Assembly: GCA_903922605.1 (NCBI GenBank) | Contig: CAIXUG010000081.1 | Span: 17,357-81,356 of the forward strand | Length of the DNA stretch: 64,000 nucleotides | From: an uncultured Verrucomicrobiota bacterium | GTDB lineage: Bacteria > Verrucomicrobiota > Verrucomicrobiia > Limisphaerales > UBA9464 | Direction: 5' to 3' | Notes under the pieces: model-generated | The model's input: the letters and a program-made list of their open reading frames with translations, nothing else | Databases searched by the model: none | What the model was told of the DNA's origin: nothing | Program-made: the position numbers and the translations under genes | In this document: in pieces, positions 1 through 15,598 of the stretch | Numbering within the stretch: position 1 is the stretch's first letter | Layout: each line of letters starts with the position of its first letter

Positions 1-277
1 GGGTCTTCGCCCGGCCGATGCGGTCGCCCACCGCCCCGAAGATCAGGCCGCCGGTGGCCCAGCCGGCCACGAAGATGGCGGTCGCGTAGCCGCCGTAGAG
101 CTTCGGGTCCGCCCCGACGGGCAGCAGCGACTTCATCGCGCCACCACGTGCCAGCAGGAAGAGCTGCTGGTCAAGACAGTCAAAGAGCCAGGCGAGGCTG
201 GCCACGGTGAACACAAACCAATGGTGCCGGTTCAGAAGCCGCCACCAGGGCAGCCCGGAGACATTCGGGGACTTCAT
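1..277 (-). CDS. MFS transporter, N-terminal part (continues beyond window edge)
   Basis: Manual minus-strand translation from the ATG at 277-275 gives MKSPNVSGLPWWRLLNRHHWFVFTVASLAWLFDCLDQQLF...IFVAGWATGGLIFGAVGDRIGRAKT. It has two hydrophobic helices followed by an MFS motif-A-like GxxGDRxGR. It is absent from the ORF track because it is truncated by the window edge. Confidence 0.6.
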   Translation of the reverse strand, partial: MKSPNVSGLPWWRLLNRHHWFVFTVASLAWLFDCLDQQLFLLARGGAMKSLLPVGADPKLYGGYATAIFVAGWATGGLIFGAVGDRIGRAKT

Positions 278-488
278 GGATTGATACGTGTTCGTAGCTT
301 GCGGGAGGGCTGTTCCCGCCGGAAAGCGGAAAGTCGGGAAATGAACGGGGAGCTCATTCCTGCAACCGGCTTCAACCGATGGTGGCGGACGCGCAGACGG
401 ATGAGTGCTTTCCGTGAACTTCGTCTTGGCGGACTGGGGCGAAACCCAACAACTGCGGACGGCCACGCCTGCCCGACTGTCCGCCATA

Positions 489-549
489 GCGCTGAAAGCG
501 CGTCCGAATGATGCCTGGGGTGGAGCGAACGCAGTGAGCGCAGCCCCAG
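489..549 (+). repeat. GC-rich intergenic repeat element of about 60 nt, copy A
   Basis: Sequence gcgctgaaagcgcgtccgaatgatgcctggggtggagcga-acgcagt-gagcgcagccccag. The reverse complement of 648-707 matches at roughly 80%. Identical blocks are gctgaaagc, gtccga, tgcctggggtggagcga and gagcgcagccccag. Confidence 0.7.
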
Positions 550-606
550 AACAGATCCTCCGATTGGTTTGAGGGCTGAAGGCCCGACCCAAAGGCTGCC
601 AACTTT

Positions 607-626
607 TTCGGACGCGCTTACAGCGC
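607..626 (-). repeat. Partial third copy of the same element (first 20 nt only)
   Basis: ttcggacgcgcttacagcgc equals the reverse complement of 489-508 with one mismatch. Confidence 0.5.
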
Positions 627-647
627 TCGGTCTCTTTTGTCAGGGAA

Positions 648-707
648 CCTGGGGCTGCGCTCGCATGGCTCGCTCCACCCCAGGCACCACTCGGACAGGC
701 TTTCAGC
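648..707 (-). repeat. GC-rich intergenic repeat element of about 60 nt, copy B (inverted relative to copy A)
   Basis: The reverse complement reads gctgaaagcctgtccgagtggtgcctggggtggagcga-gccatgc-gagcgcagccccagg. It aligns to copy A without gaps, apart from a divergent 7-nt core. Confidence 0.7.
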
Positions 708-798
708 CCTACCGAGCAGGATGCCTGCGCGCCATCTTACCAGTGAAGGCCTAGCCCTCTCTTGGTGACAAGAGGTTCCAAGGAGAGGAGCGAGTCAC

Positions 799-1683
799 TC
801 AGACGTAGAAAAAGACCCACACGGCAAAAACCACGGCCGTGATTCCGGCGGACGCGGCGAACATCCACAGGGCGGAGCGGGCCTTGGCGGCCAGGGAGAA
901 GGTGGAAATGATCACCGCGAGCTGGGCGCCCAGCATGCCGAAGAAAAAGCGCTGGCTGCGATGGCGATGGCGCTCGGCGATCAGGTTGCTTTTGCGCACC
1001 TGCAGCTCGAGCATCTGGGCGATGGTCTGGTTGAGTCGCGCCTCGGTTTCGTAGCGGGCACTGGTGTACCGCAACCGGGACGCGGTGAAGTCCCGCACCC
1101 GCTCCTGGCCGCTCCCGATCAGAGATTTTTCAAGGTCATCGATGACCTTGGTGACCGGTTTGGTGACGTCGTCATAGCGGTCCGCGCGCTCCCGGGCGGC
1201 CCGTTCCGTGCTCGTGATGGTCTGGAGGTCGAGACTGTTCAGGGGCACGGCGATTTCCTCGTCCGATTTGGCCGCGTCCAGCATGTCGACGGCGGACCGG
1301 ATGGCGGGGGCCATTTCGATTTCGGGCGGCAACGGCGGAAGTTCCCCTTTCTGGATGGCGGCGACAGCGGCCGGGGCGAGGTTGGGGAAGGTGGAGGCGT
1401 CGATGGGATTCAGGGTCACCGTGGCCTGCAACAGGTCCAGGGTGCTGCGCTGCATGGCTCCGCGCAGGCGCTTGGCCTGGAAGTAACCCCACTGGTCTCC
1501 CGCCTTCGCCTGTTGCTGGGCACCGAGCGAGCGCGAGTATTGCGCCCGGGTCATTTCACTGGAGGCCAGTCCCGCCAGCATGGTCGAGATGACGGTCATG
1601 ATGATCGGTGTGGCCGTGAGGATCTTGCCCCAATTGTTCTTTGGAGCATCTTCCTTCAGTGAGTCGGGTATCTGGATCTTCAT
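799..1683 (-). CDS. Membrane-anchored coiled-coil protein, DUF4337-like
   Basis: This is the ORF 799..1866 trimmed to the internal start MKIQIPDSLKED (ATG at 1683-1681). It has an N-terminal TM (ILTATPIIMTVISTMLAGLA), a DQWGYFQAKRLR motif remembered from DUF4337, and a C-terminal TM pair (FFFGMLGAQLAVIISTF, ALWMFAASAGITAVVFAVWVFF). The upstream 61 codons are Arg/Gly-rich and look non-coding. Confidence 0.6.
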   Translation of the reverse strand: MKIQIPDSLKEDAPKNNWGKILTATPIIMTVISTMLAGLASSEMTRAQYSRSLGAQQQAKAGDQWGYFQAKRLRGAMQRSTLDLLQATVTLNPIDASTFPNLAPAAVAAIQKGELPPLPPEIEMAPAIRSAVDMLDAAKSDEEIAVPLNSLDLQTITSTERAARERADRYDDVTKPVTKVIDDLEKSLIGSGQERVRDFTASRLRYTSARYETEARLNQTIAQMLELQVRKSNLIAERHRHRSQRFFFGMLGAQLAVIISTFSLAAKARSALWMFAASAGITAVVFAVWVFFYV

Positions 1684-1927
1684 GATTTGATTGGCGATGG
1701 CGGTGCCGGTGCCAGGTGAGGGAATACAGGGTTTCCGGGGCGAAGGCAGCAGTGTTATTGCAAGAGGTCTGGAGCGGTTTGCCCCTCCGTTCCAGCGTCT
1801 TCCACGGCAGCAATTTGACGTGCCCACGTCCGACGACGGCGCAAGGCGGCCGCGACACGATTCCACTTGGTTCCTTCGTTCCTTGGCGGTTCATCCAAGG
1901 TTCGGCAAGGCGCTGGGGCTGGCATTA

Positions 1928-3403
<1,476 letters not shown>

Positions 3404-3534
3404 GTTGTGCCGAGGCTAGCGGTGGGCCTTGGCGGGAAGGAAGGGTAAAGCGATCAGGGAGTGCCGCCCCCCGGGGACGGCATTTTTGACATTGGTACCC
3501 GCGCGGGAAATCAGGCATTCGTCCCGCAGCGAAT

Positions 3535-5391
3535 ATGTGCGGCATCATTGGTTACGTCGGCAAACGGCAGGCCTCTCCCATCCTCCTCGAAGGATTGCGG
3601 CGGCTGGAATATCGCGGCTACGACAGCGCCGGCGTGGCGGTGATCGGTGAGGAGGCGCTGGTCACCCGCAAGCGCAAGGGGAAGATCGAGGAGGGGCTGG
3701 GCACGCTGCTCGGCCAGTCACCCGTGGCCGGCCATTGCGGGATTGGCCATACCCGTTGGGCGACCCACGGCCCGCCCAGTGACGAGAATTCGCATCCGCA
3801 TCTGGACCGCGCCAGCCGGGTCGCGGTCGTGCACAACGGTGTCATCGAGAACTACGACCGGATCAAGGAACGGCTGGTGGCGGCAGGGCATCGGTTCCAG
3901 TCCGCCACGGACACTGAAGTGCTCGCCCACCTGATCGGTGAGCATCTCGCCCGGCTGACGTCCGTGCCGGAGGGCACCCACCCGCTGGCCGCCGCCGTGG
4001 CCAATGCCTTGCGTGAGGTCATTGGCACCTATGGCATCGCCGTCGTCGCGATAGATTATCCGGGCATCATTGTCGGGGCGCGGCGTGGTTCGCCGCTGCT
4101 GATCGGAGTCGGGGAAGGGGAGAACTACCTGGCTTCCGATGCTGCCGCCGTGGTCGCGCACACACGCCAGGTCGTCTATCTCAACGACTACGATGTCGTG
4201 ACGCTGACGGCGGATGACTTCGCCGTGACCAACCTGGGCACTGAGACCGCCAAGGTGCAGATCACGCGTCTGGAATTCGACGCCGAGGCGGCCGAGCGCG
4301 GGCCTTACCCGCACTTCATGCTCAAGGAGATCTTCGAGCAGCCCCAGACCGTGCGGAACGCCCTGCGCGGGCGGGTCGATCTGGAGGAGGCCACCGCGAA
4401 GTTCGGCGGCCTGAACATGACGACGGCCGAACTGCGCGCCGTGGACCGCGTGGTCATTGCCGCCTGCGGCACGAGCTGGCATGCGGCGCTCGTGGGCGAG
4501 TATCTCCTCGAGGAGTTCGCCCACCTGCCGTGCGAGGTCGAGTACGCCAGCGAGTTCCGCTACCGCAACGCGCCGCTCGACAAGCACACGCTGCTGCTCG
4601 TCATCACCCAGTCCGGCGAGACCGCCGACACGCTGGCGGGACTGCGCGAGGCGAGGCGGCGCGGCCACAAGGCCCTCGCCATCTGCAATGTCGTCGGTTC
4701 GACCATTGCGCGCGAGGCGGATGGCGGCATCTACCTGCACGCCGGCCCGGAGATCGGGGTGGCCAGCACCAAGGCCTTCACCTCGCAGGTCAGCGCACTC
4801 ACGCTGCTGGCGCTGCTGATGGGGCGCATCCGGATGCTCTCGCATCCACGCGGCAATCAGGTGCTGCGCGCTCTGGAGGCCATCCCCGACCAGATCCAGC
4901 GCATACTTGACCAGAATGAGCGCATCCGGCAGCTCGCGCTCAAGTATGCGGCCGCCGAGGACTTCTTCTTCATCGGCCGGCAATATAACTTCCCGGTCGC
5001 ACTCGAAGGCGCGCTGAAACTGAAGGAAATCTCCTACATCCATGCCGAGGGGTATCCGGCTGCCGAGATGAAGCACGGCCCCATCGCGATGATTGACGAA
5101 CGCACGCCCACGGTCGTGCTCGCGCCGAACGATGCGCTCTACGACAAGACGCAGAGCAACCTGCAGGAGATCAAGGCGCGCAAGGGGCCGATCATCGTGA
5201 TTGCCACCGAAGGCAACACCCGCATTGCCCAGGCGGCGGACGACATCCTGTACGTGCCCGCGACGCTGGACCCGCTGTATCCGCTCCTGAACGTGATCCC
5301 GCTCCAGTTGCTGGCCTACCACATCGCCGTCGCCCGTGGCTGCGACGTGGACAAGCCGCGCAATCTGGCCAAGAGCGTGACGGTGGAGTGA
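3535..5391 (+). CDS. glmS: Glutamine--fructose-6-phosphate aminotransferase
   Basis: N-terminal catalytic Cys (MCGIIGYVG), class-II amidotransferase domain, two SIS domains and the canonical C-terminus ...NLAKSVTVE. Length 618 aa. Confidence 0.97.
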   Translation: MCGIIGYVGKRQASPILLEGLRRLEYRGYDSAGVAVIGEEALVTRKRKGKIEEGLGTLLGQSPVAGHCGIGHTRWATHGPPSDENSHPHLDRASRVAVVHNGVIENYDRIKERLVAAGHRFQSATDTEVLAHLIGEHLARLTSVPEGTHPLAAAVANALREVIGTYGIAVVAIDYPGIIVGARRGSPLLIGVGEGENYLASDAAAVVAHTRQVVYLNDYDVVTLTADDFAVTNLGTETAKVQITRLEFDAEAAERGPYPHFMLKEIFEQPQTVRNALRGRVDLEEATAKFGGLNMTTAELRAVDRVVIAACGTSWHAALVGEYLLEEFAHLPCEVEYASEFRYRNAPLDKHTLLLVITQSGETADTLAGLREARRRGHKALAICNVVGSTIAREADGGIYLHAGPEIGVASTKAFTSQVSALTLLALLMGRIRMLSHPRGNQVLRALEAIPDQIQRILDQNERIRQLALKYAAAEDFFFIGRQYNFPVALEGALKLKEISYIHAEGYPAAEMKHGPIAMIDERTPTVVLAPNDALYDKTQSNLQEIKARKGPIIVIATEGNTRIAQAADDILYVPATLDPLYPLLNVIPLQLLAYHIAVARGCDVDKPRNLAKSVTVE

Positions 5392-5505
5392 GGCTTTTAT
5401 CCCATTAGGGGGCTTTCATTTTGAGGCTGGACTACTGGAAGAATACATTCAATGTATCAATACAAAATAGCTAGTTCCTAACGGATTAATTCGACATTTT
5501 AATGT

Positions 5506-6828
5506 ATGGCATTAACTTGGCAACAAATTGACGCAGCCAAGGCCTGTCTTGCTAAGATCGAAGCCTTTGATTTGGAAGCTGCGATAGTGCAAAATTTCCC
5601 CAATCAAGATTTGGGGAAAACATGCTTGGGGCGATGGAATGCGATTGAATTTCAGAGCCTTTCTAAGCGGATGACGAGGCAGTTGGCCGCTCAGTTTGAT
5701 GGGCCATCGCCGAATGTTCTTCCGCACTGCTTTTGGTGGGACGTTCAAGGTCAGTCAATGGAGCAACGTCATCTAGATGGAACTCTCTCAGAATATCTCC
5801 TCCGCCTGGAAAATCAACATTGGGAAAGGGCTGCAGATCTATTGGAGGTGCTAATTGGGTATCAGGTTCATTGCGGCTTTTGGAGCGTCGGTGAAAGAAA
5901 GCTATATAGCATTCCTCGGTTAAAGCAGTTTGAAATTTTTAAAACACTAGAACTAAAATCTTCTCAACTGACACAGCTTATAAACGAAGTTTCGGGGAAA
6001 AACCAACAATTGGAACCGGAGATCGAAAACCGGAAAACTGAAGCGGCAGCTATTGGGAAATTGCTTCACGGCGCGGAAAGAGAAACAGAGGAGGTTGGGA
6101 AACTTCTGAATCAGGCCTCAAACCACGAGGGGAAACTTCAGCAAATAGTATCCAATCAAGAAGCCAATCTCGAAACATCAAAAAATGAGATTCAAGAAGC
6201 CACAAAAATAAAAATCGATTTATTAAATTCTTTAAAAAGTGCGATTGAGGAGTTGGAGAAATCACGCGCCATCTTGCAGTTTCTTGAAAGTAAGGTCGAT
6301 ATGGTTAACGAGATTGCGGGTACTGCTGGCGCTGGCTTATTGGGGCGGAAATTCGAAGCGCGGAATTGGGAGCTGCAATCCACTTCGCGTACTTGGTTTT
6401 ACATTTTATTGGGATCTGTCGGGGCTTCAGCAGTTTGGTTGGGCTTCGCTCACAAGTATATCGTGCAGAAAGATCCCAGCATTTGGATGACATTGGCAGA
6501 GAATTTCGGGCTACTTCTTCCCGCATGCTTCCTGCTTTACTTTGTCGCAAATCAATATGCGAAAGAGCGCCACTTTCAGGAAGAGTATGCGTTTCGATCT
6601 GCGGTTTCCATGACTCTTAACGCATTTGCTGACTTATTGAAAGAAGGGCAATCTGAGCGAAACAAACTTTACACTGATACGGTTGAGAGATTGTATCGCT
6701 TGCCAATTTCTCTTCAAGAGCGCGAATCTGGAGCTGGATTGTTTCGCTCCAAACCAATTGAACAGACAACTAAATCTCTTTTGGAATTAATTAAAGAGAT
6801 CAACGAGCTTAAAAAGCATGACAAATGA
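5506..6828 (+). CDS. Orphan hypothetical protein: N-terminal globular domain, long coiled coil, two TM helices (low-GC island)
   Basis: A 440-aa ORF in a markedly AT-rich stretch. A heptad-rich segment of about 130 aa (LKSSQLTQLINEVSGKNQQLEPEIENRK...AIEELEKSRAILQFLESK) is followed by two hydrophobic helices (WFYILLGSVGASAVWLGFA and FGLLLPACFLLYFVANQY) and an amphipathic tail. I did not recognise a family signature. Confidence 0.75.
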   Translation: MALTWQQIDAAKACLAKIEAFDLEAAIVQNFPNQDLGKTCLGRWNAIEFQSLSKRMTRQLAAQFDGPSPNVLPHCFWWDVQGQSMEQRHLDGTLSEYLLRLENQHWERAADLLEVLIGYQVHCGFWSVGERKLYSIPRLKQFEIFKTLELKSSQLTQLINEVSGKNQQLEPEIENRKTEAAAIGKLLHGAERETEEVGKLLNQASNHEGKLQQIVSNQEANLETSKNEIQEATKIKIDLLNSLKSAIEELEKSRAILQFLESKVDMVNEIAGTAGAGLLGRKFEARNWELQSTSRTWFYILLGSVGASAVWLGFAHKYIVQKDPSIWMTLAENFGLLLPACFLLYFVANQYAKERHFQEEYAFRSAVSMTLNAFADLLKEGQSERNKLYTDTVERLYRLPISLQERESGAGLFRSKPIEQTTKSLLELIKEINELKKHDK

Positions 6829-6926
6829 ATTCATCAGGCTTTTGGCTTAAATCGACCGAACGCTGAATCTTTTCAATTTTCGTCTGCTAATCTTATAAGT
6901 CATTAAGGAGGGCATCTGCATGGCTT

Positions 6927-7297
6927 TCAACGATCCGCGGCCTTGGTCAGCTCAAAGGTGTCGAACAGGCGGCCTTCGAGGTCGTAGGCTTTAAACTGGA
7001 TCGTCCGGTCCTGTACGGTGGCAAAGCAGAAGCGGTGTCCCCGCTGGACATGGATGGAATACCAGGAGCGTTGCGGACCCGCCTCTTCCAGCGTGCTACC
7101 CCCGCCGCCGCTGGTGATGTAGCCGACACCATTCTTCTGATTGATGGCCATCTGCAGGATCGGCCGGGTGCGTTCGTAGCTGTGGATGTCCCTGCCACGG
7201 TGAAAAGCTGCTCCCAGTCAGCGCGATTGGCCGGAGTTCGTTTTCGGCGCCCGGCGGAAAACGCTGTCGGATTCCAACCTCCGGCGGCGATATACAC
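6927..7297 (-). pseudogene. Remnant of a calcineurin-like metallophosphoesterase (C-terminal fragment, frameshifted, N-terminus missing)
   Basis: ORF 6927..7151 encodes ...MAINQKNGVGYITSGGGGS...QFKAYDLEGRLFDTFEL. Reading the same frame upstream gives FHRGRDIHSYERTRPILQ, a degenerate GHxHxYER motif preceded by a stop. The overlapping ORF 6947..7297 carries ...YIAAGGWN...ADWEQLF in another frame. The whole catalytic N-terminal half is absent. Confidence 0.6.
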
Positions 7298-7303
7298 CTG
7301 AAG

Positions 7304-9973
7304 ATGAGCGACACCGACCTACAACTGCTCGCGCGTTACTCCCGTGACCAGGCCGAGGACGCCTTTGCCGAAATTGTCCGCCGCCACGTGGACCTCGTGT
7401 ATTCCGCCGCGCTCCGGCAGGTCCGCTCCCCGCAGCTCGCCGAGGAAGTCGGCCAATCCGCCTTCACCGATCTCGCGCGCAATGCCGACACTTTGAAGCC
7501 CGGCACGGTGTTGACCGCGTGGCTTTATCAGGTGACCCGCCGAACCGCCATTGACGTCGTCCGCCGTGAAACCCGTCGCCAGTTGCGCGAACTGATCGCC
7601 ACCGAGATGAATGCCATGAACGCCCCGGAAACCGGCTGGACGCACATCGAGCCGCTGCTCGACGAGGCGATGTCCGCACTCGATGAACCCGACCGCGCCG
7701 CCGTGCTCCTGCGCTATTTCGAGAACAAATCTCTGCGCGAAGTCGGCCAGCAACTCGGCGTGACCGACGATGCCGCGCAAAAGCGAGTGACTCGTGCAGT
7801 GGAACGGCTGCGAGAATTCTTCGCCCGACGCGGTGTCAGCGTCGGTGCGGGTGGACTGGTCGGCGGCCTTTCCGCCCACGCCGTCCAAGCGGCTCCGGCG
7901 GGACTGGGGGTTACCCTGTCCACGGCTGCCCTGTTGGCGACCGCCGGCCTTTCCGCCCCGGCCGGTGCCAGTGCGACTGCCGGAGTCTTCGCTTGGGCAA
8001 TGCAGGCCGCCCGGACGAAGCTCGGGGCCGGGCTTGCCGCGGTGGCTGTCGCCGGCATGGCCACCTGCTTCACGCTCCGCACGCGTCACCCAGCGGACGG
8101 GAGTGACGCCACCGCCGCTCACCCGGTCGTCGGATCCAATCCGGACCAAAAGCAGCTTCCAGCGGGATCGGCGGCCGGAGGCGCCAACGGGGTTGAGAAG
8201 CCGCACGATCCCGATCCACTCGCCCTGCTCATGGGAGTGGCCAAGGCCAGGCAGCGGATTGCTTCGGGGACTGTGGAGTATCAGCACACCGTGGAGCAGA
8301 TGTTTCAGCCGGGGCGCCCCATGACCAATCACCTGCGGCTCCTGGCACGGTTTGAGGGGGCGAAGCTGCGCTTCGAACAGTTTGACCGTGAATACAGCTA
8401 TGCATACTCGGCCGATGAGGCCAAGCAGCAGGAGATTACGAAGCAGGCTGACAGCATGGGCCGGGAGGCGGCGGTTCAGGCGGGACTGCTGAAGCCCTTT
8501 GAATCACACCACGTGGCTGCCTATGACGGAGTGGCCGTCATGGATTATTGGGAATCGGATGGCAAAGCGGAGCACATGACCATCGATGCGCCCGGCAGGA
8601 GTGCTAGTTTCCTCGGTAACCCGCGGTGTCTGGGCCTCAGTTCTTCGACGTACGTCGAGACTACCGTCGAGGGCTGCCTGGGTTACGCCGACGCCAAATC
8701 GTTCGAATTGGCCGGCGAGGAGTCCGTGGAGGGAATTCCTGCCTGGCATGTACGCGTGCAATCCCGGAGTTGGGGCACACTGGATTTCTGGATTGAGGTC
8801 GCCCACCCGGAACGGGTCCTCAAGCGCGCCAACGGATCCGATGTGGTGCTTTCGAAATACGAGGGCGACGCTTCGCGCGACCCGCTCCCGGTCGAAGTCA
8901 AAATCATGACCTTCCGCAACGGAGCGCCGTTCATGGGCGAGCAGTTCATCCGCTCCAATGCCAGTTACAATGTGCCCATGGAGCCTTCGTCCTTCACCCT
9001 ATCCGGATTGGGGATCGCCAAGGGCACACCGGTCACCGATAATCGCATCTCTCGTTCGATTGGGTATTGGACCGGGACCGGGCTTTCCGAGGATTTGTCA
9101 CCGGCGGATGCGACCAAAGCCGAGGGAGCGCCCAAGCTCGATGAGCAGGTGGCGCTGCTGAACTACAATCCCGCCACCCCCGAAGCGTTCGACGCCGCGA
9201 AGTGGATCCTGCTCAACACCCCCGACGGGGCGGAGGTCGAAAAAGCCGCCCAGGTCATCCGGCTCTGGCACGCGCGCGACACCAATCTTCTTGGCCTTTG
9301 CCAGTCACTCGAGCGCTTGCGCCATCGCTGCTCCAAGGAATTGCTGGCAGCGCTCCTGAAAGAAAACCCCAGCGTGGATGTGCGAGGCAACGCTTGCTTT
9401 ACCTTGGCAACGCTGTTGAAAGACGAGGCAAATTACGGCCAGAACAAGCCGGCCACCGCCCAGGCCGAAAAGCAGTTCGAGCGTGTCATCGCCGAATTTG
9501 GTCGGGTCGAGCAGCGGGGATTACCCTTGGCCGGATTGGCGCAGCCGGAGCTGTCCGAATTGCGCCGCCTCACCCTCGGCAAGCCCGCGCCGGAGATCGA
9601 GGGTGTGGATCTGGAGGGCCAGCCCATGAAGCTGAGCGATTACCGGGGCAAAGTGGTGATGCTCGTATTTTGGGCGTCCAGCGCCTCGGGTGCTTCGGAC
9701 CACAAAAAGCTGGCCGAGTACATGGCCGGAAAGCCTTTTGCCCTCCTTGGCGTCTGTATCGACAACGACCTGACGAAGGGAAAAGCGGAAGCCGAGAAAT
9801 CCCAGATCACCTGGCCCTCCTTTTGGGATGGGCGCGACGGCCCGATCAGCAAGAACTGGAATGTGCAAAGCTGGCCCAATGTTTGGTTATTGGATCGGCA
9901 GGGGGTGATTCGTTACCGCGATCTGCGGGGACGCGAACTGCGCGACGCCGTGGAAAAACTGCTGGGTGAGTGA
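7304..9973 (+). CDS. ECF-type sigma-70 factor fused to a TM segment, a large extracytoplasmic region and a cysteine-less thioredoxin-like (TlpA/redoxin) domain
   Basis: Sigma region 2 (FAEIVRRHVDLVYSAALRQV...). Sigma region 4 (AVLLRYFENKSLREVGQQLGVTDDAAQKRVTRAVERLREFF). Hydrophobic stretch (LGAGLAAVAVAGMATCFTL). C-terminal redoxin fold (GKPAPEIEGVDLEGQPMKLSDYRGKVVMLVFWASSASGAS...WPNVWLLDRQGVIRY) in which the CxxC position reads SSASGAS. Confidence 0.85.
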   Translation: MSDTDLQLLARYSRDQAEDAFAEIVRRHVDLVYSAALRQVRSPQLAEEVGQSAFTDLARNADTLKPGTVLTAWLYQVTRRTAIDVVRRETRRQLRELIATEMNAMNAPETGWTHIEPLLDEAMSALDEPDRAAVLLRYFENKSLREVGQQLGVTDDAAQKRVTRAVERLREFFARRGVSVGAGGLVGGLSAHAVQAAPAGLGVTLSTAALLATAGLSAPAGASATAGVFAWAMQAARTKLGAGLAAVAVAGMATCFTLRTRHPADGSDATAAHPVVGSNPDQKQLPAGSAAGGANGVEKPHDPDPLALLMGVAKARQRIASGTVEYQHTVEQMFQPGRPMTNHLRLLARFEGAKLRFEQFDREYSYAYSADEAKQQEITKQADSMGREAAVQAGLLKPFESHHVAAYDGVAVMDYWESDGKAEHMTIDAPGRSASFLGNPRCLGLSSSTYVETTVEGCLGYADAKSFELAGEESVEGIPAWHVRVQSRSWGTLDFWIEVAHPERVLKRANGSDVVLSKYEGDASRDPLPVEVKIMTFRNGAPFMGEQFIRSNASYNVPMEPSSFTLSGLGIAKGTPVTDNRISRSIGYWTGTGLSEDLSPADATKAEGAPKLDEQVALLNYNPATPEAFDAAKWILLNTPDGAEVEKAAQVIRLWHARDTNLLGLCQSLERLRHRCSKELLAALLKENPSVDVRGNACFTLATLLKDEANYGQNKPATAQAEKQFERVIAEFGRVEQRGLPLAGLAQPELSELRRLTLGKPAPEIEGVDLEGQPMKLSDYRGKVVMLVFWASSASGASDHKKLAEYMAGKPFALLGVCIDNDLTKGKAEAEKSQITWPSFWDGRDGPISKNWNVQSWPNVWLLDRQGVIRYRDLRGRELRDAVEKLLGE

Positions 9974-9984
9974 GCGCCCTGCTG

Positions 9985-10017
9985 AAAAGCAAAAAGGGAG
10001 GACCCTGCGGTCCTCCC
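9985..10017 (-). terminator. Rho-independent terminator between convergent genes (U-tract on the minus-strand transcript)
   Basis: Stem gggaggacc (9996-10004), loop ctgc, stem ggtcctccc (10009-10017). On the minus strand the hairpin is followed by TTTTTGCTTTTC. Confidence 0.7.
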
Positions 10018-10039
10018 TTGAGACAAAGTCAGTTCCGGC

Positions 10040-10870
10040 TCACTTCGCGCTGCCCGCGCGGCGGCGGAGCAGGGCGAAGGTTGCCAGGCCGCCCGCGAAG
10101 ATGGCGGCGTAGGCGGAAGGTTCGGGAACGGGGCTGACCTGGGAGAAGCTCGTGCCGATGGCCAGGTTGTCGACCGCGATGATGCCGGGGGCGCCCGTGC
10201 CCCCAGAGACGCCCTGACGGAGGTCGAAGGCCGTGAGGTCCGCCTGGGTGCCGACGGCATCGGTGGCCGTGACACTGGTGCTCGCGCTGGAAGCGGGGTT
10301 CACCCAGAGGGTGGTCTGCTTGGCGATGAGGTCGTAGCGAACGACGACGTGGTAGGTGGTGTTCAGTGAGAGATCCTGCTGGAATTCCATGCTATTGGCG
10401 ATGCTCCAGTTGGCGTTGGCGACGGTGATGCGGAACTTGCCGGCAGCGGCCCCATCAATATCGGCCCCGATGCGGCCAAAAAGGCTGGTCGTGCTGCTCG
10501 TCGAATTGCTGAAGACGGCGAAGTAGGAGCCGTCGGTGTTGGTAGGCAGCGCCGACCAGGTGGCATCGAAGCCCACATAGGCCACCGTGTTGCCGGTCGT
10601 GCTGAAAGTGCCGCCGATGGCCTGGCTGACGTCCTGCCTGCCGCTGGTGGTATCCCCCTGATTGATGATGGCTGCACCGTTGGACACTTGGAACTTGGTG
10701 GTAGTGTCGGGGCCGTAGGCGACCCAATTGCCACCGGAGACAGTGGTAATGTCCCCGTCCGAATAGCTGAAGCTATCGGTGAGCAATTGTGCCTGCGTGG
10801 CCGTGGCACCGGCCAAGGCCAGCGAGGCGAGCAGTGAATGCTTGAATATGGTGTTCATTTTTAAATGCAA
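10040..10870 (-). CDS. PEP-CTERM sorting-domain secreted protein
   Basis: Signal peptide MNTIFKHSLLASLALAGATATQA (an alternative start lies 4 codons earlier). C-terminal PEP-CTERM anchor VSPVPEPSAYAAIFAGGLATFALLRRR. Confidence 0.9.
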   Translation of the reverse strand: MHLKMNTIFKHSLLASLALAGATATQAQLLTDSFSYSDGDITTVSGGNWVAYGPDTTTKFQVSNGAAIINQGDTTSGRQDVSQAIGGTFSTTGNTVAYVGFDATWSALPTNTDGSYFAVFSNSTSSTTSLFGRIGADIDGAAAGKFRITVANANWSIANSMEFQQDLSLNTTYHVVVRYDLIAKQTTLWVNPASSASTSVTATDAVGTQADLTAFDLRQGVSGGTGAPGIIAVDNLAIGTSFSQVSPVPEPSAYAAIFAGGLATFALLRRRAGSAK

Positions 10871-10905
10871 TGGAGCGCCATTAACCTAAGCAATACCCAT
10901 GCCCT

Positions 10906-13161
10906 TTGGAAGCAGTAGTTCGGTTTGATTATTTCCGTGTAACTTGCTTGCTTTTAGTTGGTTGCGTACACCTGCTCCAATGTCCTTTGCATTTTTCCGA
11001 AGCGGGATACGCTTCGGTCGTGCGTATCCAAAACATCGTCCCGGGAAGTTTTTACGTCACCGATGGCGAGCACAGCCTTCTGGCTGGCTGTCCACCCGAG
11101 ATCGTCAAGGTTCTCCTCCGCGAGAAGCTGAGCCCGCCGCAGCATATCCTGCTGCCCGATGTGCCGGTCAGCCACGGCGAGTCACAGGTGGCGGTGGAAT
11201 TTCCCCTCTACTACCACCTGTTCCATGGCGGGACACAACCGGGAGAGCTGCCGCTGAACCTGTTGGGCAACGCCCGTCGCGTCAAAGCGGCGGCGGATTT
11301 GCTGGAATTGACGCTTTTTGGACCGGACGAGGAGCAGATGGCGCAATGGGGGCTGCCGGAGGATCGGGCCCGGACCCTGGCGCGCGAAACCCGGTGGTTC
11401 CAGCTCAAGGACGCGCACGGCAAGGCGTTGCCATTTGATGCCCTGATCAGCCGTACGGTGGTGGGCGACGAAACGGTGGATTTGGGCTGGATACGTATCA
11501 AACGATTGCGGACCAATGTATTCCTGCTGGAGCTGGCTGGCTGTGACCCGCAGGAGCTGGATCTGACGCCGGAGTGCGACCAGGCTCCGCCCTATCCGGT
11601 GCCGTTTGATCTGGTGCCTTCCGCGATGGTGAAAATGGGTGTGGAAGTGCTGGGCGGGGCCACTGGCTTCAGCACCACGCAGGCTTCCTGCGGGTTGGCC
11701 CTCTGCTTCAACGGCCAATACCTCCTCGTGGATGCGATCCCGTATCTCTACCACCATATGCGGGCGCGGGGCATTTCGCGGAACCAAGTCCAGGGGCTGT
11801 TCCTGACCCACATCCACGACGACCACTGCAACCTCGTTTCATTCCTGCTCTACAATCGCCGCGTCCGGGTACTCACCACGCCGCTGATCTATCACATGAT
11901 GCTGCGGAAGCTGTCGCTCACGCTGGACCGCTCCGAGGAGAGCCTGCAGGAGTATTTCATCTTCATTCCGCTGAATCCCGACGAGGAGACGAACTTCTTC
12001 GGCCTACGCATCACCCCGCACTATTCCAGCCACTCGATTCCTACCATCGGGGCACGCTTTGAAACGGCCCATGACGGGGTGGATTACCGGGTCCTGCTCA
12101 CAGGAGATACCCAGTCGATGAGCGATCTGCGCCGGATGCAGAAGTCCGGCGTGATCAACCAGGAGCGGTTCCAGGAGGTGTCGGACGCCTATCGCCGGCC
12201 GGCCCAGCTGCTGATTGCCGACGGCGGGGAAGGCAAAATCCACGGCGACCCGGCTGATGCGCTGGATTCGCCGGCCGAGCGCATCGTGTTCATGCACACG
12301 GACAAGCTGCCGGACGCGTTCGACTCCCATTTCACCAGTGCCTCCGCCGGGAAGCGCTTCGTGCTGCTGCCGGGTGAAACGGACTATTACCTGACCCGCA
12401 CGATCGAGTTCCTGCTGGAATACTTTCCGGAAATGCCGCCGATGTGGATTTCCAACCTCCTGGCGAACCAGCGGGTGATCAAATACAACGCGGGCGATAT
12501 CATCATCCGCGAGGGGGCGAAGAGTGATGGCCGGGTGTACATGCTGCTGACCGGGCACGCGTCCATCGTGCATCACGACGGACGGCAGAAGTTCCACCTG
12601 GCCCAGATGGAGGCCGGCGAGATCATCGGTGAGATGTCGATCATCATGGGGCAGGGCGTCCGCAACGCCTCGGTGGTCGCGCTCAGCCCCGTCATTGCGA
12701 CCGCCTTTTCCGAGGCGGCCTTCCGCGAATACGTCCATCACCAGAACATCGAGGGCAAGCTGAAGCGCCTCTGGCAGCACCGGGAGCTCCTCCAGTCGCT
12801 GCCGTATTTGCGGCCCCTCCAGCAGCCGATCATCCGGGAGCTGGCCCGGCTCGTCAGCCTGGAGCACCTGCCCGCCCGTACGGGCCCGCGACCGCTGAAG
12901 TCGGTGTGCGATCCCTTCAGCCTGGTATTGCCGTTGGCCGTGGAACTGACCCTCAACCGGGATGGCAAGATGGTCACGGTGCCCGCGCAATCCGCTCCGA
13001 TCCTCTGCACCCCGAGCACCACCCTGGTCTCGGAAGTGGAGTTCCAGTATCTGCTGCTGGGGGTGGAGCAGGCGTCCGACCTCCGTTCGCGCACTCCCGC
13101 GTTCCGTTTTCTCTGGGAGGAAATGCTCGGAATGCCGCTGCCAAACCGGGTCCGGTTCTGA
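10906..13161 (+). CDS. MBL-fold metallo-hydrolase fused to a cyclic-nucleotide-binding domain
   Basis: HxHxDH motif (LFLTHIHDDHCNL). The cNMP-binding beta-roll reads VIKYNAGDIIIREGAKSDGRVYMLLTGHASIV...AGEIIGEMSIIMGQGVRNASVVA. The start is uncertain: the ORF opens with TTG at 10906 and a GTG at 11021 is an alternative. Confidence 0.8.
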   Translation: MEAVVRFDYFRVTCLLLVGCVHLLQCPLHFSEAGYASVVRIQNIVPGSFYVTDGEHSLLAGCPPEIVKVLLREKLSPPQHILLPDVPVSHGESQVAVEFPLYYHLFHGGTQPGELPLNLLGNARRVKAAADLLELTLFGPDEEQMAQWGLPEDRARTLARETRWFQLKDAHGKALPFDALISRTVVGDETVDLGWIRIKRLRTNVFLLELAGCDPQELDLTPECDQAPPYPVPFDLVPSAMVKMGVEVLGGATGFSTTQASCGLALCFNGQYLLVDAIPYLYHHMRARGISRNQVQGLFLTHIHDDHCNLVSFLLYNRRVRVLTTPLIYHMMLRKLSLTLDRSEESLQEYFIFIPLNPDEETNFFGLRITPHYSSHSIPTIGARFETAHDGVDYRVLLTGDTQSMSDLRRMQKSGVINQERFQEVSDAYRRPAQLLIADGGEGKIHGDPADALDSPAERIVFMHTDKLPDAFDSHFTSASAGKRFVLLPGETDYYLTRTIEFLLEYFPEMPPMWISNLLANQRVIKYNAGDIIIREGAKSDGRVYMLLTGHASIVHHDGRQKFHLAQMEAGEIIGEMSIIMGQGVRNASVVALSPVIATAFSEAAFREYVHHQNIEGKLKRLWQHRELLQSLPYLRPLQQPIIRELARLVSLEHLPARTGPRPLKSVCDPFSLVLPLAVELTLNRDGKMVTVPAQSAPILCTPSTTLVSEVEFQYLLLGVEQASDLRSRTPAFRFLWEEMLGMPLPNRVRF

Positions 13162-13282
13162 GGAGAGGCCATGACCAACGCCGCGAGAACGGTCGGCCAC
13201 CGTATGTTTCACTCATCTACCTGAACTCCCGGCTTGAACCTGTGCACGCCTTGCGGCGAAGTTTGGCCATTCTGATTAGCGA

Positions 13283-13750
13283 ATGAATCTCGGCGACATC
13301 CTCACCACCCAGCAAATCGTGCCGGAGCTCAAGGCCACCAACCGGTGGGAGGCCATCGATGAACTCATCGGCACGCTCGTGCTGGCGGGCAAGATCACGC
13401 CGCCGGACCGCGAGGCCGTCACCGCCGTGGTGAAGAAGCGCGAGCAGTCCATGAGCACGGGCATCGGGTTCGGCATCGGCATCCCCCACGCGAGCACCGA
13501 GCTGATCGGCGAGGTTGTGGCGGCCTTTGGCCGGAGCAAGGCGGGCGTCAACTTTGACGCGCTCGACAACCAGCCCGTTCATCTAGTCACCCTTTTCCTG
13601 GTTCCGCAGGGGCAGTTCCAGAAGCACCTGCATACGCTAGCCGGCATCGCCAAGGTGCTCCGCAAGGATGATTTCCTGAAGGCCCTGGAGGCTGCTTCTG
13701 ATGCGGAGGCGATGATGGCCGTCATCCGTCAGTTTTCCACCAAGCCTTGA
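13283..13750 (+). CDS. ptsN: PTS EIIA-Ntr type nitrogen regulatory protein
   Basis: A 155-aa protein with EIIA(Fru/Ntr) fold signatures: ...REQSMSTGIGFGIGIPHAS... (phospho-His region) and VHLVTLFLVP. Confidence 0.85.
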   Translation: MNLGDILTTQQIVPELKATNRWEAIDELIGTLVLAGKITPPDREAVTAVVKKREQSMSTGIGFGIGIPHASTELIGEVVAAFGRSKAGVNFDALDNQPVHLVTLFLVPQGQFQKHLHTLAGIAKVLRKDDFLKALEAASDAEAMMAVIRQFSTKP

Positions 13751-13783
13751 ATTCGCCGCGCCGCCGCGCCGGCCGTTCCCGAA

Positions 13784-13816
13784 GGTCGCGGCCACCACCG
13801 CGACCGTTTTCTTTTT
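13784..13816 (+). terminator. Rho-independent terminator after ptsN
   Basis: Stem ggtcgcgg (13784-13791), loop ccacca, stem ccgcgacc (13798-13805), then gttttcttttt. Confidence 0.7.
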
Positions 13817-13819
13817 ACC

Positions 13820-15598
13820 GTGCTCCACCTCACTCTTGAATCCCGACTCCGCGCCGCCGTCACGCTCGTCCTGCCGGACGCCAGCACCGCGAACGTATTG
13901 GTGCGCCCGGCGGCGGACGCCAAGTTTGGCGACTACCAGAGCAACGCCCTGATGACGCTGGCGAAGGAGTGCAAGCTCAACCCGCGTCAGCTGGCCACCG
14001 ACGTGGTCGCCAAGCTCGACGTGTCGGACATCTGCGAGAAGGTGGAGATTGCCGGGCCCGGCTTCCTCAATTTCCGCCTCAAGCCAGACGCGCTGGCGGG
14101 CGTGCTTGCGGCGGCGGCGCGCGGCGAGCACCTGTTTTTCGCCCAGGCCACCACGGAAACGTTGCGCACGGTCGTCATCGACTTCTCGTCGCCGAATGTC
14201 GCGAAGCCGATGCACGTCGGGCATATCCGCTCGACCATCCTGGGCGATTCGTTGGCGCGCACGCTGCGGCTGCTGGGCCATCGCGTGATCACCGACAACC
14301 ACATTGGCGACTGGGGCACGCAGTTCGGCATGCTGCTGATTGGTTGGAAAACCCTGATGGAACGGACCGCCCTGGACCGTGATCCGATCGCGGAGCTGGA
14401 GCGCATCTACAAGGCCGTCAACGCCGCCTGCAAGGAGGCCCCGGCAACCCTCGAATCGGCCCGCGCTGAGCTGGTGAAGCTGCAGTCCGGCGATGCCGAG
14501 AATCTGGCCATCTGGCATGAGATGATCCGGCTGTCGCAGGTGCAGTTCGACGCGATCTATGGGCGGCTGGGCGTGAAGTTTGACCACACGCTCGGGGAGA
14601 GCTTTTATAATCCTTGGCTCAAGACGCTGGTCGAAGAACTGGTGGCCAAGGGGCTCGCCCGCGAAAGCGAGGGGGCCGTCGCGGTCTTTTCCGACGGCAC
14701 GCTGCCGCCGAAGACCGATCCGCTGCGGGTGCAAAACCGCGAGGGTGAATGGGTGGACGATCCGTTGCTCATCCAGAAAAGCGATGGGGCGTCGAACTAC
14801 GCCACGACGGACCTCGCCACTCTCGATTACCGCCTCAAGGAATGGCAGGCGACCGAGATCGTGTATGTCGTCGGTGCCCCGCAGCAGCCGCATTTCAACA
14901 AGCTGTTTCACGTCTTCCGCCGCTGGCAGCCCGAGGCCGCCGCGAAGGTGAAGCTGCTGCATGCGTGGTTCGGCTCGATCCTCGGTGACGACGGGAAGCC
15001 CTTCAAAACCCGCAGCGGCGACACGGTGAAGCTGGCCGACCTGCTCGACGAGGCGGAGGAACGCGCGCTCAAGGTGGTCGCGGAAAAACGGCCCGATCTG
15101 GACGCCGCCGTCCAGAAAGAGATCGCCCGCAAGGTCGGTCTGGGCGCGGTGAAGTATCAGGACCTGCTGTCGAACCGGCAGAGCGACTACGTGTTCTCCT
15201 GGGACAAGATGCTGGCGCTCACTGGCAACACGGCGGTGTACGTCCAATACCAGTTCACACGCGCGAACAAGGTGGTCCGCGACTCGGGGATGGAGCGACA
15301 AGCGTCGCTTGCCGATGGCCAGTTGGTCCTGGGCGATCCCGCCGAGTTCACCCTCGCCAAGCATCTGCTGAACTTTGGCCTGACCCTGGACGCCGCCGCC
15401 GATGATTGCCGGCCCAACTTCCTGGTGAACTACCTCTATGAGCTGGCGACGCTCTATTCGCGGTTCTATGACCAGTGCCCGGTGCTCAAGGCGGCCGAGC
15501 CTGCGCGCACCATGCGCGTCGTGCTCTGCGACCTCACCGCGCGCGTGCTCCGGCAGGGCTTGGACTGCCTGGGCATTGAGGCTCCAGAAGTGATGTAG
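13820..15598 (+). CDS. argS: Arginine--tRNA ligase
   Basis: GTG start. N-terminal Arg-tRNA-synthetase add-on domain (FGDYQSNALMTLAKE). Class-I HIGH motif (NVAKPMHVGHIRSTILGD). DALR anticodon-binding C-terminus ending in M. Confidence 0.96.
   Translation: MLHLTLESRLRAAVTLVLPDASTANVLVRPAADAKFGDYQSNALMTLAKECKLNPRQLATDVVAKLDVSDICEKVEIAGPGFLNFRLKPDALAGVLAAAARGEHLFFAQATTETLRTVVIDFSSPNVAKPMHVGHIRSTILGDSLARTLRLLGHRVITDNHIGDWGTQFGMLLIGWKTLMERTALDRDPIAELERIYKAVNAACKEAPATLESARAELVKLQSGDAENLAIWHEMIRLSQVQFDAIYGRLGVKFDHTLGESFYNPWLKTLVEELVAKGLARESEGAVAVFSDGTLPPKTDPLRVQNREGEWVDDPLLIQKSDGASNYATTDLATLDYRLKEWQATEIVYVVGAPQQPHFNKLFHVFRRWQPEAAAKVKLLHAWFGSILGDDGKPFKTRSGDTVKLADLLDEAEERALKVVAEKRPDLDAAVQKEIARKVGLGAVKYQDLLSNRQSDYVFSWDKMLALTGNTAVYVQYQFTRANKVVRDSGMERQASLADGQLVLGDPAEFTLAKHLLNFGLTLDAAADDCRPNFLVNYLYELATLYSRFYDQCPVLKAAEPARTMRVVLCDLTARVLRQGLDCLGIEAPEVM

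Follow-up and report, generated by a model that had tools for sequence, protein, structure and literature searches.

Background

The gene for PrrC is a lone addition to the hsdS-hsdR slot of a type Ic restriction-modification (R-M) system, EcoprrI (the prr locus), and the protein acts as a second-line abortive-infection effector. It is a soluble ABC-ATPase-like tRNA(Lys) nuclease that is almost always embedded and depends on the R-M system. This work concerns a family of proteins, here called X, whose gene is likewise a single extra gene in that slot in several type I R-M operons, and in particular the member found in a 64,000-nucleotide stretch of DNA (the window) from an uncultured Verrucomicrobiota bacterium. 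In the window the X gene codes for 440 amino acids (5506-6828, forward strand) and is the only gene of a low-GC island immediately downstream of glmS. Unlike PrrC, X carries no ATPase or nuclease motif, is predicted to be membrane-anchored and is also found in BREX clusters, in a phage and alone, and no sequence similarity between the two was found. Based on genomic context we propose, tentatively and at slightly under an even chance, that the island gene was horizontally acquired and most likely is a self-sufficient single-gene defence against phages or mobile DNA that acts at the inner membrane. What is new is the candidate family, which is unnamed; the kind, that is, membrane-acting defence genes that are embedded or solitary, is known, and many similar candidates exist.

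SLATT-type and other effectors with two transmembrane segments (2TM) in CBASS, Pycsar and Thoeris-like systems (PycTM, Cap15-type) resemble X in the predicted mode of action, in which an inner-membrane helical hairpin would permeabilise the membrane once activated, and in the defence-island context. Those effectors are switched on by a nucleotide that a partner cyclase or SMODS enzyme makes and carry a ligand-binding domain, whereas X has no conserved partner, no recognisable nucleotide-binding domain and a motif of its own, K-E-R-x-F-Q-E-E-Y-A-F-R-S. Lambda RexB, lactococcal AbiZ and P22 SieA and SieB are also prophage- or plasmid-borne, are membrane-located, as X is predicted to be, and act alone or nearly so, and they share with X a prophage site by the repressor and integrase. 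They are not homologous to X, which is much larger and has about 300 predicted cytoplasmic residues of N-terminal domain and coiled coil before its hairpin, and RexB needs RexA. ZorA of Zorya and the methyl-accepting chemotaxis proteins resemble the predicted X in combining a membrane anchor with a very long cytoplasmic coiled coil that is thought to relay a signal between the membrane and a domain at its far end. ZorA, however, is a MotA-like multi-TM stator with a partner, ZorB, and the chemotaxis proteins have periplasmic sensors and a C-terminal hairpin, both unlike X. The same class of evidence as is used here, an uncharacterised gene in BREX and type I R-M, underlies the PADLOC 'phage defence candidates' found through guilt by embedding (Payne et al. 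2024 preprint), but no PADLOC-DB v2.0.0 model, the PDC and HEC models included, matches X at family level.

Results and discussion

Homologues of X are embedded in R-M and BREX-1 operons

In four separate cases (L004-8, L009, L174/175 and L180) the hsdS-hsdR slot of a type I R-M operon holds the family gene, which overlaps its neighbours by 4-20 bp or is separated from them by gaps of 3-35 bp. The gene order at P0003 (45% identity; 24 contigs read) is hsdM-rhuM-hsdS-[X]-hsdR-ygjP, where [X] is the family gene, with gaps of 3 and 9 bp, and the operon lies within an island that carries an integrase and PIN/Phd toxin-antitoxin pairs. At P0013 (30% identity) the order is hsdM-hsdS-[X]-TIR/SEFIR-hsdR-ygjP with a 4-bp overlap with hsdS, and at P0009 (48% identity) it is hsdM-rhuM-hsdS-x-TIR/SEFIR-DUF8370/71-[X]-hsdR-ygjP with a 4-bp overlap with hsdR. 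The P0009 copy is full-length in one frame by tblastn, the gene caller having chosen a late start. P0011 (35% identity) follows hsdS with a 20-bp overlap, and there the contig ends. Further cargo is embedded in such operons: a TIR-SEFIR protein accompanies the family member in two of them (L009 6812-8359 and L174 6535-8061), the L174 operon also embeds a DUF8370/DUF8371 protein, and RhuM is found between hsdM and hsdS in L004 and L174. TIR-SEFIR is present in 2 of about 14 contexts and absent from the others and is, therefore, not a conserved partner.

The other embedding is in BREX-1. A 456-amino-acid homologue, WP_001030448.1, which aligns with the window protein over its full length (E 6e-34), lies between pglX and pglZ on 24 Acinetobacter plasmids in the order brxR-brxA-brxB-brxC-pglX-[X]-pglZ-brxL, and in the two plasmids inspected (p3ABAYE and pAHTJS1) it overlaps both neighbours by 4 bp. 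The hosts belong to at least six named species and include A. baumannii AYE (p3ABAYE), A. pittii, A. nosocomialis, A. seifertii, A. haemolyticus and A. indicus. BREX clusters with an uncharacterised 'intruding' hypothetical gene have been described in an independent comparison of these plasmids, as have related clusters without one (PMC10117892), and a text search of a further study of Acinetobacter BREX (PMC9122589) found no mention of an extra or hypothetical open reading frame (ORF). As a side observation, in the 456-amino-acid subfamily (L016-L019; L016 ~8793-10743) a 218-amino-acid ORF upstream and ORFs of 53 and 95 amino acids downstream recur beside the gene on several contigs; these have no Pfam match and are absent beside the embedded copies and the window copy.

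Outside these operons the contexts are varied. In the Riemerella temperate phage vB_RanS_GDF21 the homologue is the first gene in a block opposite to the lytic genes and is followed by a helix-turn-helix (HTH) gene and by the integrase gene that closes the block. Other copies lie beside an OLD-family ATPase/TOPRIM gene together with Gp49/HTH and nucleotidyltransferase toxin-antitoxin-like pairs, beside a PycTM gene, beside a patatin gene on a ParAB replicon next to an IS481-family fragment, and, on a Hymenobacter plasmid, beside a KAP P-loop NTPase. The copies P0028, P0005 and P0023 are, like the window copy, solitary among housekeeping genes. This Hymenobacter plasmid copy (L173 8700-10065) is frameshifted so that its N-terminal domain is in another reading frame, and three Acinetobacter plasmid copies (CP033536, NZ_CP061590 and CP033532) are in three pieces each; decay of the genes or errors in the sequences may be the cause. 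The family gene is poorer in G+C than its own locus in 11 of 13 other hosts, which fits repeated horizontal transfer.

The family gene thus lies inside four type I R-M operons and one BREX-1 lineage (24 plasmids) and is read in the same direction as the genes around it. The hsdS-hsdR slot is described as a hotspot of recombination that also harbours defence systems such as DarTG2 (PMC12255303), and guilt by embedding has predicted defence systems that were experimentally confirmed (bioRxiv 10.1101/2024.01.29.577857). Since X has five embeddings in two immune systems, a lysogeny position in a phage, contexts on plasmids and beside defence genes, and no conserved partner, a self-sufficient role against phages or other mobile genetic elements is the best supported one. 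Self-sufficiency is suggested by the solitary copies in housekeeping contexts and the lack of a conserved partner. An earlier note on this DNA, made from the sequence only, had guessed at a defence or abortive-infection function, and the homologues in R-M operons, in BREX-1 and in a prophage lysogeny region lend that guess strong contextual support.

The window copy is a solitary gene in an island of foreign composition

The island extends from the stop codon of glmS to the stop codon of a convergent gene remnant (5392-6926, no strand assigned) and has a G+C content of 0.433 (43.3%) against 0.641 in the rest of the window (1.5-kb windows, standard deviation 0.019, minimum 0.592), which corresponds to z = -11. 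It is the sole low-GC stretch in the 64 kb, as every 500-bp window below 0.52 starts between 5201 and 6701. In 300-bp windows the G+C content falls from about 0.65 over glmS to 0.39-0.49 at ~5400-6900 and has recovered by ~6930, and the edges come out at 5394 and 6934 in a cumulative-deviation walk. At third codon positions the G+C content (GC3) is 0.438 in the X gene as compared to 0.86 in glmS, 0.90 in the response regulator gene and 0.75 in the gene for an extracytoplasmic function (ECF) sigma factor. The X gene is the only long ORF of the island and the only one with homologues. The sharply bounded low-GC island with one 440-amino-acid ORF, as described in the earlier note, was therefore recovered by measurement, and the codon-position composition points the same way.

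No integrase or transposase gene is present within 10 kb on either side of the island in the gene table with Pfam assignments, in agreement with what had been noticed before. Also, no tRNA was found in bases 1-14000, Rfam gave no match across 5200-7400, and a promoter and terminator scan found nothing convincing 5' of the X gene and no terminator 3' of it. The 8-mer GGCTTTCA, which had been pointed out as a direct repeat bracketing the island, is present at 5411-5418 and 6922-6929 as claimed; its count in the window is five where 2.3 would be expected, and an 8-mer common to both boundary zones of +/-30 bp is seen in 3% of shuffles and for 10% of the zone pairs set at the same distance in this window. 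The repeat is at chance level and carries no weight as a junction mark. The island is foreign by composition and consists of a single gene without mobility genes.

On the left the island adjoins glmS (3535-5391, forward strand; Pfam GATase_6/7 and SIS), and the compositional break is 1-3 bp past the glmS stop codon. This matches the glmS-downstream position of attTn7, the hot spot to which the earlier note had assigned the island. In position the assignment agrees, but none of the Tn7 hallmarks was found: tnsABC(D)-type transposase and ATPase genes are absent within 10 kb on either side, no inverted repeat, as expected of Tn7 ends with TnsB sites, links both ends of the island, and the one repeat that brackets it is the chance-level 8-mer and not a 5-bp target duplication. 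The attTn7 reading, therefore, has the position alone in its favour and a Tn7 mechanism is not supported.

On the right an ORF of 74 amino acids (6927-7151, reverse strand) has a host-like G+C content of 60% and lies outside the island cargo. The in-frame sequence upstream of it (to ~7230) reads G-R-D-I-H-S-Y-E-R with a stop codon ahead of it, which we take to be a degenerate form of the metallophosphoesterase motif G-H-x-H-x-Y-E-R; Pfam, which gave no match for the ORF, does not confirm this. The ORF is probably a 5'-truncated (3') remnant of what looks like a metallophosphoesterase gene, and its presence beside the island suggests an old deletion or rearrangement. The X gene thus sits between two 3' ends that converge, beside an apparently decayed gene, and the locus appears to have been rearranged.

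Every contig that encodes the exact GlmS also has the island. In the species-level genome collection the best GlmS match (74% identity) comes from Verrucomicrobiota metagenome-assembled genomes that have no neighbours in common with the window, and the closest homologue in metagenomes of the ECF-sigma fusion to the right of the island is 62% identical and has no glmS nearby. We infer acquisition from the composition of the island and from the patchy, mobile distribution of the family, and not from its junctions. Homologues of HsdM, HsdS, HsdR, RhuM, YgjP, BrxC, PglX, PglZ, BrxL and the TIR protein were not found in the 64-kb window, which leaves the gene there as a solitary copy that lacks an R-M or BREX partner.

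X belongs to a widespread family without a curated model

The X protein had been called an orphan, which it is not. A word-indexed search of 5.8 billion proteins gave 28 clusters, among them the identical protein on 7 metagenomic contigs from several samples and relatives that are full-length and share 55, 45, 44, 41% or fewer of their residues with it. An exhaustive HMMER search of 1.84 billion representatives at 50% identity gave 690 matches at E<=1e-3, of which 252 reached E<=1e-10 and 29 reached E<=1e-30, and among the 150 matches listed nearly all are 430-480 amino acids long and align from end to end. In divergent members that align over the C-terminal half only, the closing motif of the N-terminal domain, Y-Q-x-x-x-G-F-W-D-K/R, is still there, and no domain-swapped relative with the same C-terminal module and another N-terminal domain was seen. 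The family thus has a single fixed architecture, the most divergent members included. Such a fixed length together with strongly conserved motifs across hundreds of clusters implies purifying selection.

That the protein could not be placed in a named family was confirmed. Pfam, NCBIfam, PADLOC-DB v2.0.0 and PHROGs were scanned with the window protein, with 86 members one by one, and with the RefSeq member from Acinetobacter and the members from the phage and the R-M operons, and only sub-threshold matches of the coiled-coil type were obtained (SMC, LmuB, JetC, DruC, ZorA, PbeC, tape-measure proteins and ATG17-like), which in the window protein span residues 145-270. Matches to the ZorA model, seen in 6 of the 86 members, are below family level like the others of this type, and the PADLOC profiles, which the note had recommended, gave nothing else. 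At E<=10 hmmscan of the window protein against Pfam returned five coiled-coil-type families only. The earlier comparison of the 2TM module to SLATT is not supported, since apart from this coiled-coil noise no SLATT, PycTM or other Pfam or PADLOC model matched the window protein at E<=10, and SLATT was not among the 25 most-matched of the 74 families obtained with the 86 members. The window also contains no genes for signal generators of the SMODS/CD-NTase, SLOG or TIR type. Searches of the PDB by sequence and with profiles of the N-terminal domain and the C-terminal module gave nothing credible; a match to a 'designed helical repeat' had no passing domain. Kinship with a neighbouring DUF4337 protein was considered and rejected, as hhalign against the C-terminal module gave a probability of 0.3%. 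In the literature no paper was found that names the family or the accessions WP_001030448, WP_004827023 and WVX90411. By these searches X appears to be an unnamed family without a curated model in the copies of Pfam, NCBIfam, PADLOC and PHROGs that were searched, and it deserves a profile model for annotation.

Predicted architecture of X

A full-length AlphaFold2 model was made from a 25-sequence alignment and is of moderate confidence (mean pLDDT, the predicted local distance difference test, 74.5; pTM, the predicted TM-score, 0.41). It predicts an N-terminal alpha+beta domain (residues 1-125; 5506-5880, forward strand, as are all parts of the gene), which closes in the family-wide motif Y-Q-x-x-x-G-F-W, followed by a coiled-coil region (residues 136-296; 5911-6393) modelled as a long antiparallel helical hairpin. 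The predicted helices are 136-204; 211-318, which is 108 residues long and runs unbroken into the first transmembrane segment (TM1); 326-377, which comprises the second (TM2) and the helix after it; 382-396; and 416-438. Globular domain, coiled coil and 2TM hairpin follow one another as the earlier note had described, except that the N-terminal domain is about 125 residues by AlphaFold2 and not about 150. This domain is the best-modelled part, with a pLDDT of ~90 in the full model and, when modelled alone, a pLDDT of 91.6 and a pTM of 0.85. Foldseek found no match for its fold (best E 1.1 in PDB and 0.5 in BFVD, TM-score <=0.38). With the full model the best E in PDB was 0.45 and all matches were axonemal or coiled-coil proteins, so that the structure search that had been suggested gave no fold beyond coiled coils.

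Hydropathy and conservation place a putative 2TM hairpin at 6394-6552, with TM1 at residues 297-316, a loop of 10 residues and TM2 at residues 327-349. The Kyte-Doolittle mean over 19 residues exceeds 1.5 in just these two regions, where it peaks at 1.55-1.74, and the two hydrophobic helices quoted before are present at 297-315 and 334-351. There is no signal peptide and 296 soluble residues precede TM1; lysine and arginine residues flanking the segments number three before, two in the loop and three after, which is not decisive. The 296 soluble N-terminal residues without a signal peptide and the short loop suggest a hairpin with both the N- and the C-terminus inside.

Conservation is strongest behind the membrane segments. 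The most conserved segment (residues 350-400; 6553-6705) is the helix after TM2 with the motif Q-Y-x-K-E-R-x-F-Q-E-E-Y-A-F-R/K-S. Mean identity to the window protein is 51% after TM2, 38% in TM2 and 35% in the helix before TM1, compared to 23% in the N-terminal domain, 20% in the coiled coil and 10%, the lowest, in the loop between the TM segments. Four residues are invariant across 86 members, namely R286, R355, E359 and P400; R355 and E359 are within the motif after TM2 and P400 is at the end of the 350-400 segment. Near-invariant in the same members are G124, W126, L279, F283, W297, P339, Q350, E360, Y361, A362, F363 and T370, while N333 in TM2 is near-invariant in the 25-member alignment A1. 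The stretch before TM1 has conserved G272, L279, F283 and R286, and TM2 has a conserved polar and a conserved helix-breaking residue, N333 and P339. From this pattern the conserved core appears to be a juxtamembrane module on the cytoplasmic side rather than the short external loop. A conserved module before TM1, in TM2 and after TM2 together with variable putative sensing parts would fit a cytoplasm-facing membrane effector, with pore formation as a presumed activity.

Proposed function and the alternatives

If X is a self-sufficient defence protein, it may work as follows. The protein would be anchored by the 2TM hairpin with both ends in the cytoplasm, and its compact N-terminal domain of unrecognised fold would be joined through the conserved G-F-W junction to the long antiparallel coiled-coil hairpin. 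The second helix of that hairpin would lead into TM1, and TM2 into the most conserved helix (K-E-R-x-F-Q-E-E-Y-A-F-R-S), which is predicted to pack on the conserved helix before TM1 and to form with it a juxtamembrane bundle. Upon sensing an infection cue by the N-terminal domain or the coiled coil, the bundle and the moderately hydrophobic hairpin with its conserved polar residues would rearrange or oligomerise, the membrane would be permeabilised, and abortive infection would result through arrest or death of the infected cell. A bolder and unlikely version of this makes X an immune protein that needs no other component and senses through a new fold, a 'guard plus executioner' in which the cytoplasmic N-terminal domain detects a phage cue and the signal, passed on through a coiled-coil hairpin of ~100 angstroms, opens a new 2TM pore around the K-E-R-x-F-Q-E-E-Y-A-F-R-S bundle. 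In that version the cue may possibly be anti-restriction activity, given the preference of the family for a place behind the methylase or specificity gene in R-M and BREX, and the family would be spread over several bacterial phyla and also be present on clinical Acinetobacter plasmids.

Several points weigh against a defence role of this kind. About 4 of the 14 contexts, the window included, are without defence neighbours, only 1 match was found among 50,697 phage records, and searches of the IMG/VR viral contigs with family patterns gave no confirmed match. No similarity to a known pore-former or defence effector was found in the library and PDB searches, the TM segments are only moderately hydrophobic (Kyte-Doolittle 1.55-1.74), and the geometry of hairpin and bundle is uncertain in a full-length model that is only moderately confident. 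The comparison of glmS-downstream loci that had been called for found no empty site or syntenic relative in the collections searched that would demonstrate an insertion, its polarity and its junctions. Guilt by embedding is itself probabilistic and some embedded genes are non-defence. Of the genes found inside Hma, BREX, DISARM and type I R-M systems, over half are unassigned (bioRxiv 10.1101/2024.01.29.577857), and X appears to be among these because no PADLOC-DB v2.0.0 model matches it. Taken together, the reading in the earlier note is partly supported: a defence role is well motivated by context, and membership in SLATT and a Tn7 mechanism are not supported.

The alternative that survives best, unlikely as we consider it to be, is that X is accessory cargo without a role in defence, such as a membrane-associated coiled-coil scaffold, a stress protein or a selfish element of the addiction type, which is carried along in recombination hotspots and may be inert at this locus. 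Several contexts are indeed housekeeping, the frameshifted Hymenobacter copy and the three split Acinetobacter copies suggest dispensability, and the library matches are all generic coiled-coil. However, motifs and length are conserved across hundreds of clusters, the identical protein is on 7 contigs from several samples, and repeated embedding inside operons of two immune systems, with phage and plasmid contexts in addition, would be an unlikely coincidence in the case of a scaffold or housekeeping protein.

It is also conceivable, with a rather low probability, that X is an accessory or guard of methylation-based systems, which tethers R-M or BREX to the membrane or monitors them and fires when a phage anti-restriction protein inactivates them; the window copy would then be a relic parted from its partner. 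All five independent embeddings are after hsdS or pglX and before hsdR or pglZ, on the restriction side, and the overlapping start and stop codons imply co-translation. PrrC, according to the legend of Fig. 6C in bioRxiv 10.1101/2024.01.29.577857, shares this hsdS-hsdR slot and is hardly ever found except as an embedded gene of type I R-M, and a guard would mirror PrrC held latent by EcoprrI. On the other hand, the window has no homologue of HsdM/S/R, BrxC, PglX/Z or BrxL in 64 kb, other intact copies are solitary or beside unrelated systems, and related Acinetobacter BREX clusters exist without the intruding gene (PMC10117892). The slot also takes unrelated cargo, namely RhuM, TIR-SEFIR and DUF8370/71 in the operons described here and DarTG2 (PMC12255303) and DUF262 (PMC10117892) elsewhere, and therefore behaves as an insertion hotspot. 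Thus, the guard idea is attractive for the constant position after the methylase or specificity gene but is weakened by the solitary copies and the varied cargo.

Phage genes for superinfection exclusion (Sie) are classically located in the lysogeny region. Entry exclusion by X, in which a constitutive inner-membrane protein blocks phage DNA injection or conjugative entry without killing the cell (cf. P22 SieA, T4 Imm and lactococcal Sie2009), would agree with the phage copy in the lysogeny region near a repressor-like HTH gene and an integrase, with copies on mobilizable plasmids, and with a predicted membrane anchor in a protein that adjoins systems acting on incoming DNA (R-M and BREX), but it is improbable since the prediction puts ~90% of the protein in the cytoplasm, the periplasmic loop of ~10 residues is the least conserved part (10% mean identity) and, being small and variable, a poor fit for outside contact with tail or tape-measure proteins or a DNA channel, and known Sie proteins are mostly small and none with similarity to X was detected in the library scans.

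If the proposal of a self-sufficient membrane-acting defence is correct, a compact single-gene system (~1.3 kb) whose sensor fold is unrecognised and whose membrane-effector module is new would join the immune repertoire, and X would be a tractable model for the coupling of sensing to membrane damage through a coiled coil. There would also be an explanation for the 'intruding hypothetical gene' in BREX of clinically relevant Acinetobacter plasmids such as p3ABAYE, which would bear on host range in phage therapy. It would also mean that solitary genes of odd composition without mobility machinery can be assigned to immunity through distant embedded homologues. The candidate is concrete and testable, with a clinically relevant homologue on Acinetobacter BREX plasmids.

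Other features of the window

Two genes from the island lies the gene for the DUF4337 protein mentioned above (799-1866, reverse strand), in which a coiled coil likewise occurs together with two TM helices at the C-terminus. Upstream of this gene, in intergenic DNA, is a 63-nucleotide inverted repeat (487-549 and 649-711) with 84% complementary arms that are 99 nucleotides apart and a nested 21-nucleotide repeat of 95%; it has no Rfam match. To the right of the island, at 10906-13161 on the forward strand, a protein of 751 amino acids has a metallo-beta-lactamase fold and a cyclic nucleotide monophosphate (cNMP)-binding domain, and its Pfam matches include Anti-Pycsar_Apyc1. Judged from these domains it may be a chromosomal cyclic-nucleotide phosphodiesterase that is regulated by cyclic nucleotides. 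The ECF sigma factor gene (7304-9973, forward strand) codes for 889 amino acids in which the sigma factor is fused to a long C-terminal region ending in a redoxin/AhpC-TSA domain, and metagenomic contigs related to this gene (L100 and L102) carry two or three tandem sigma-domain paralogues.

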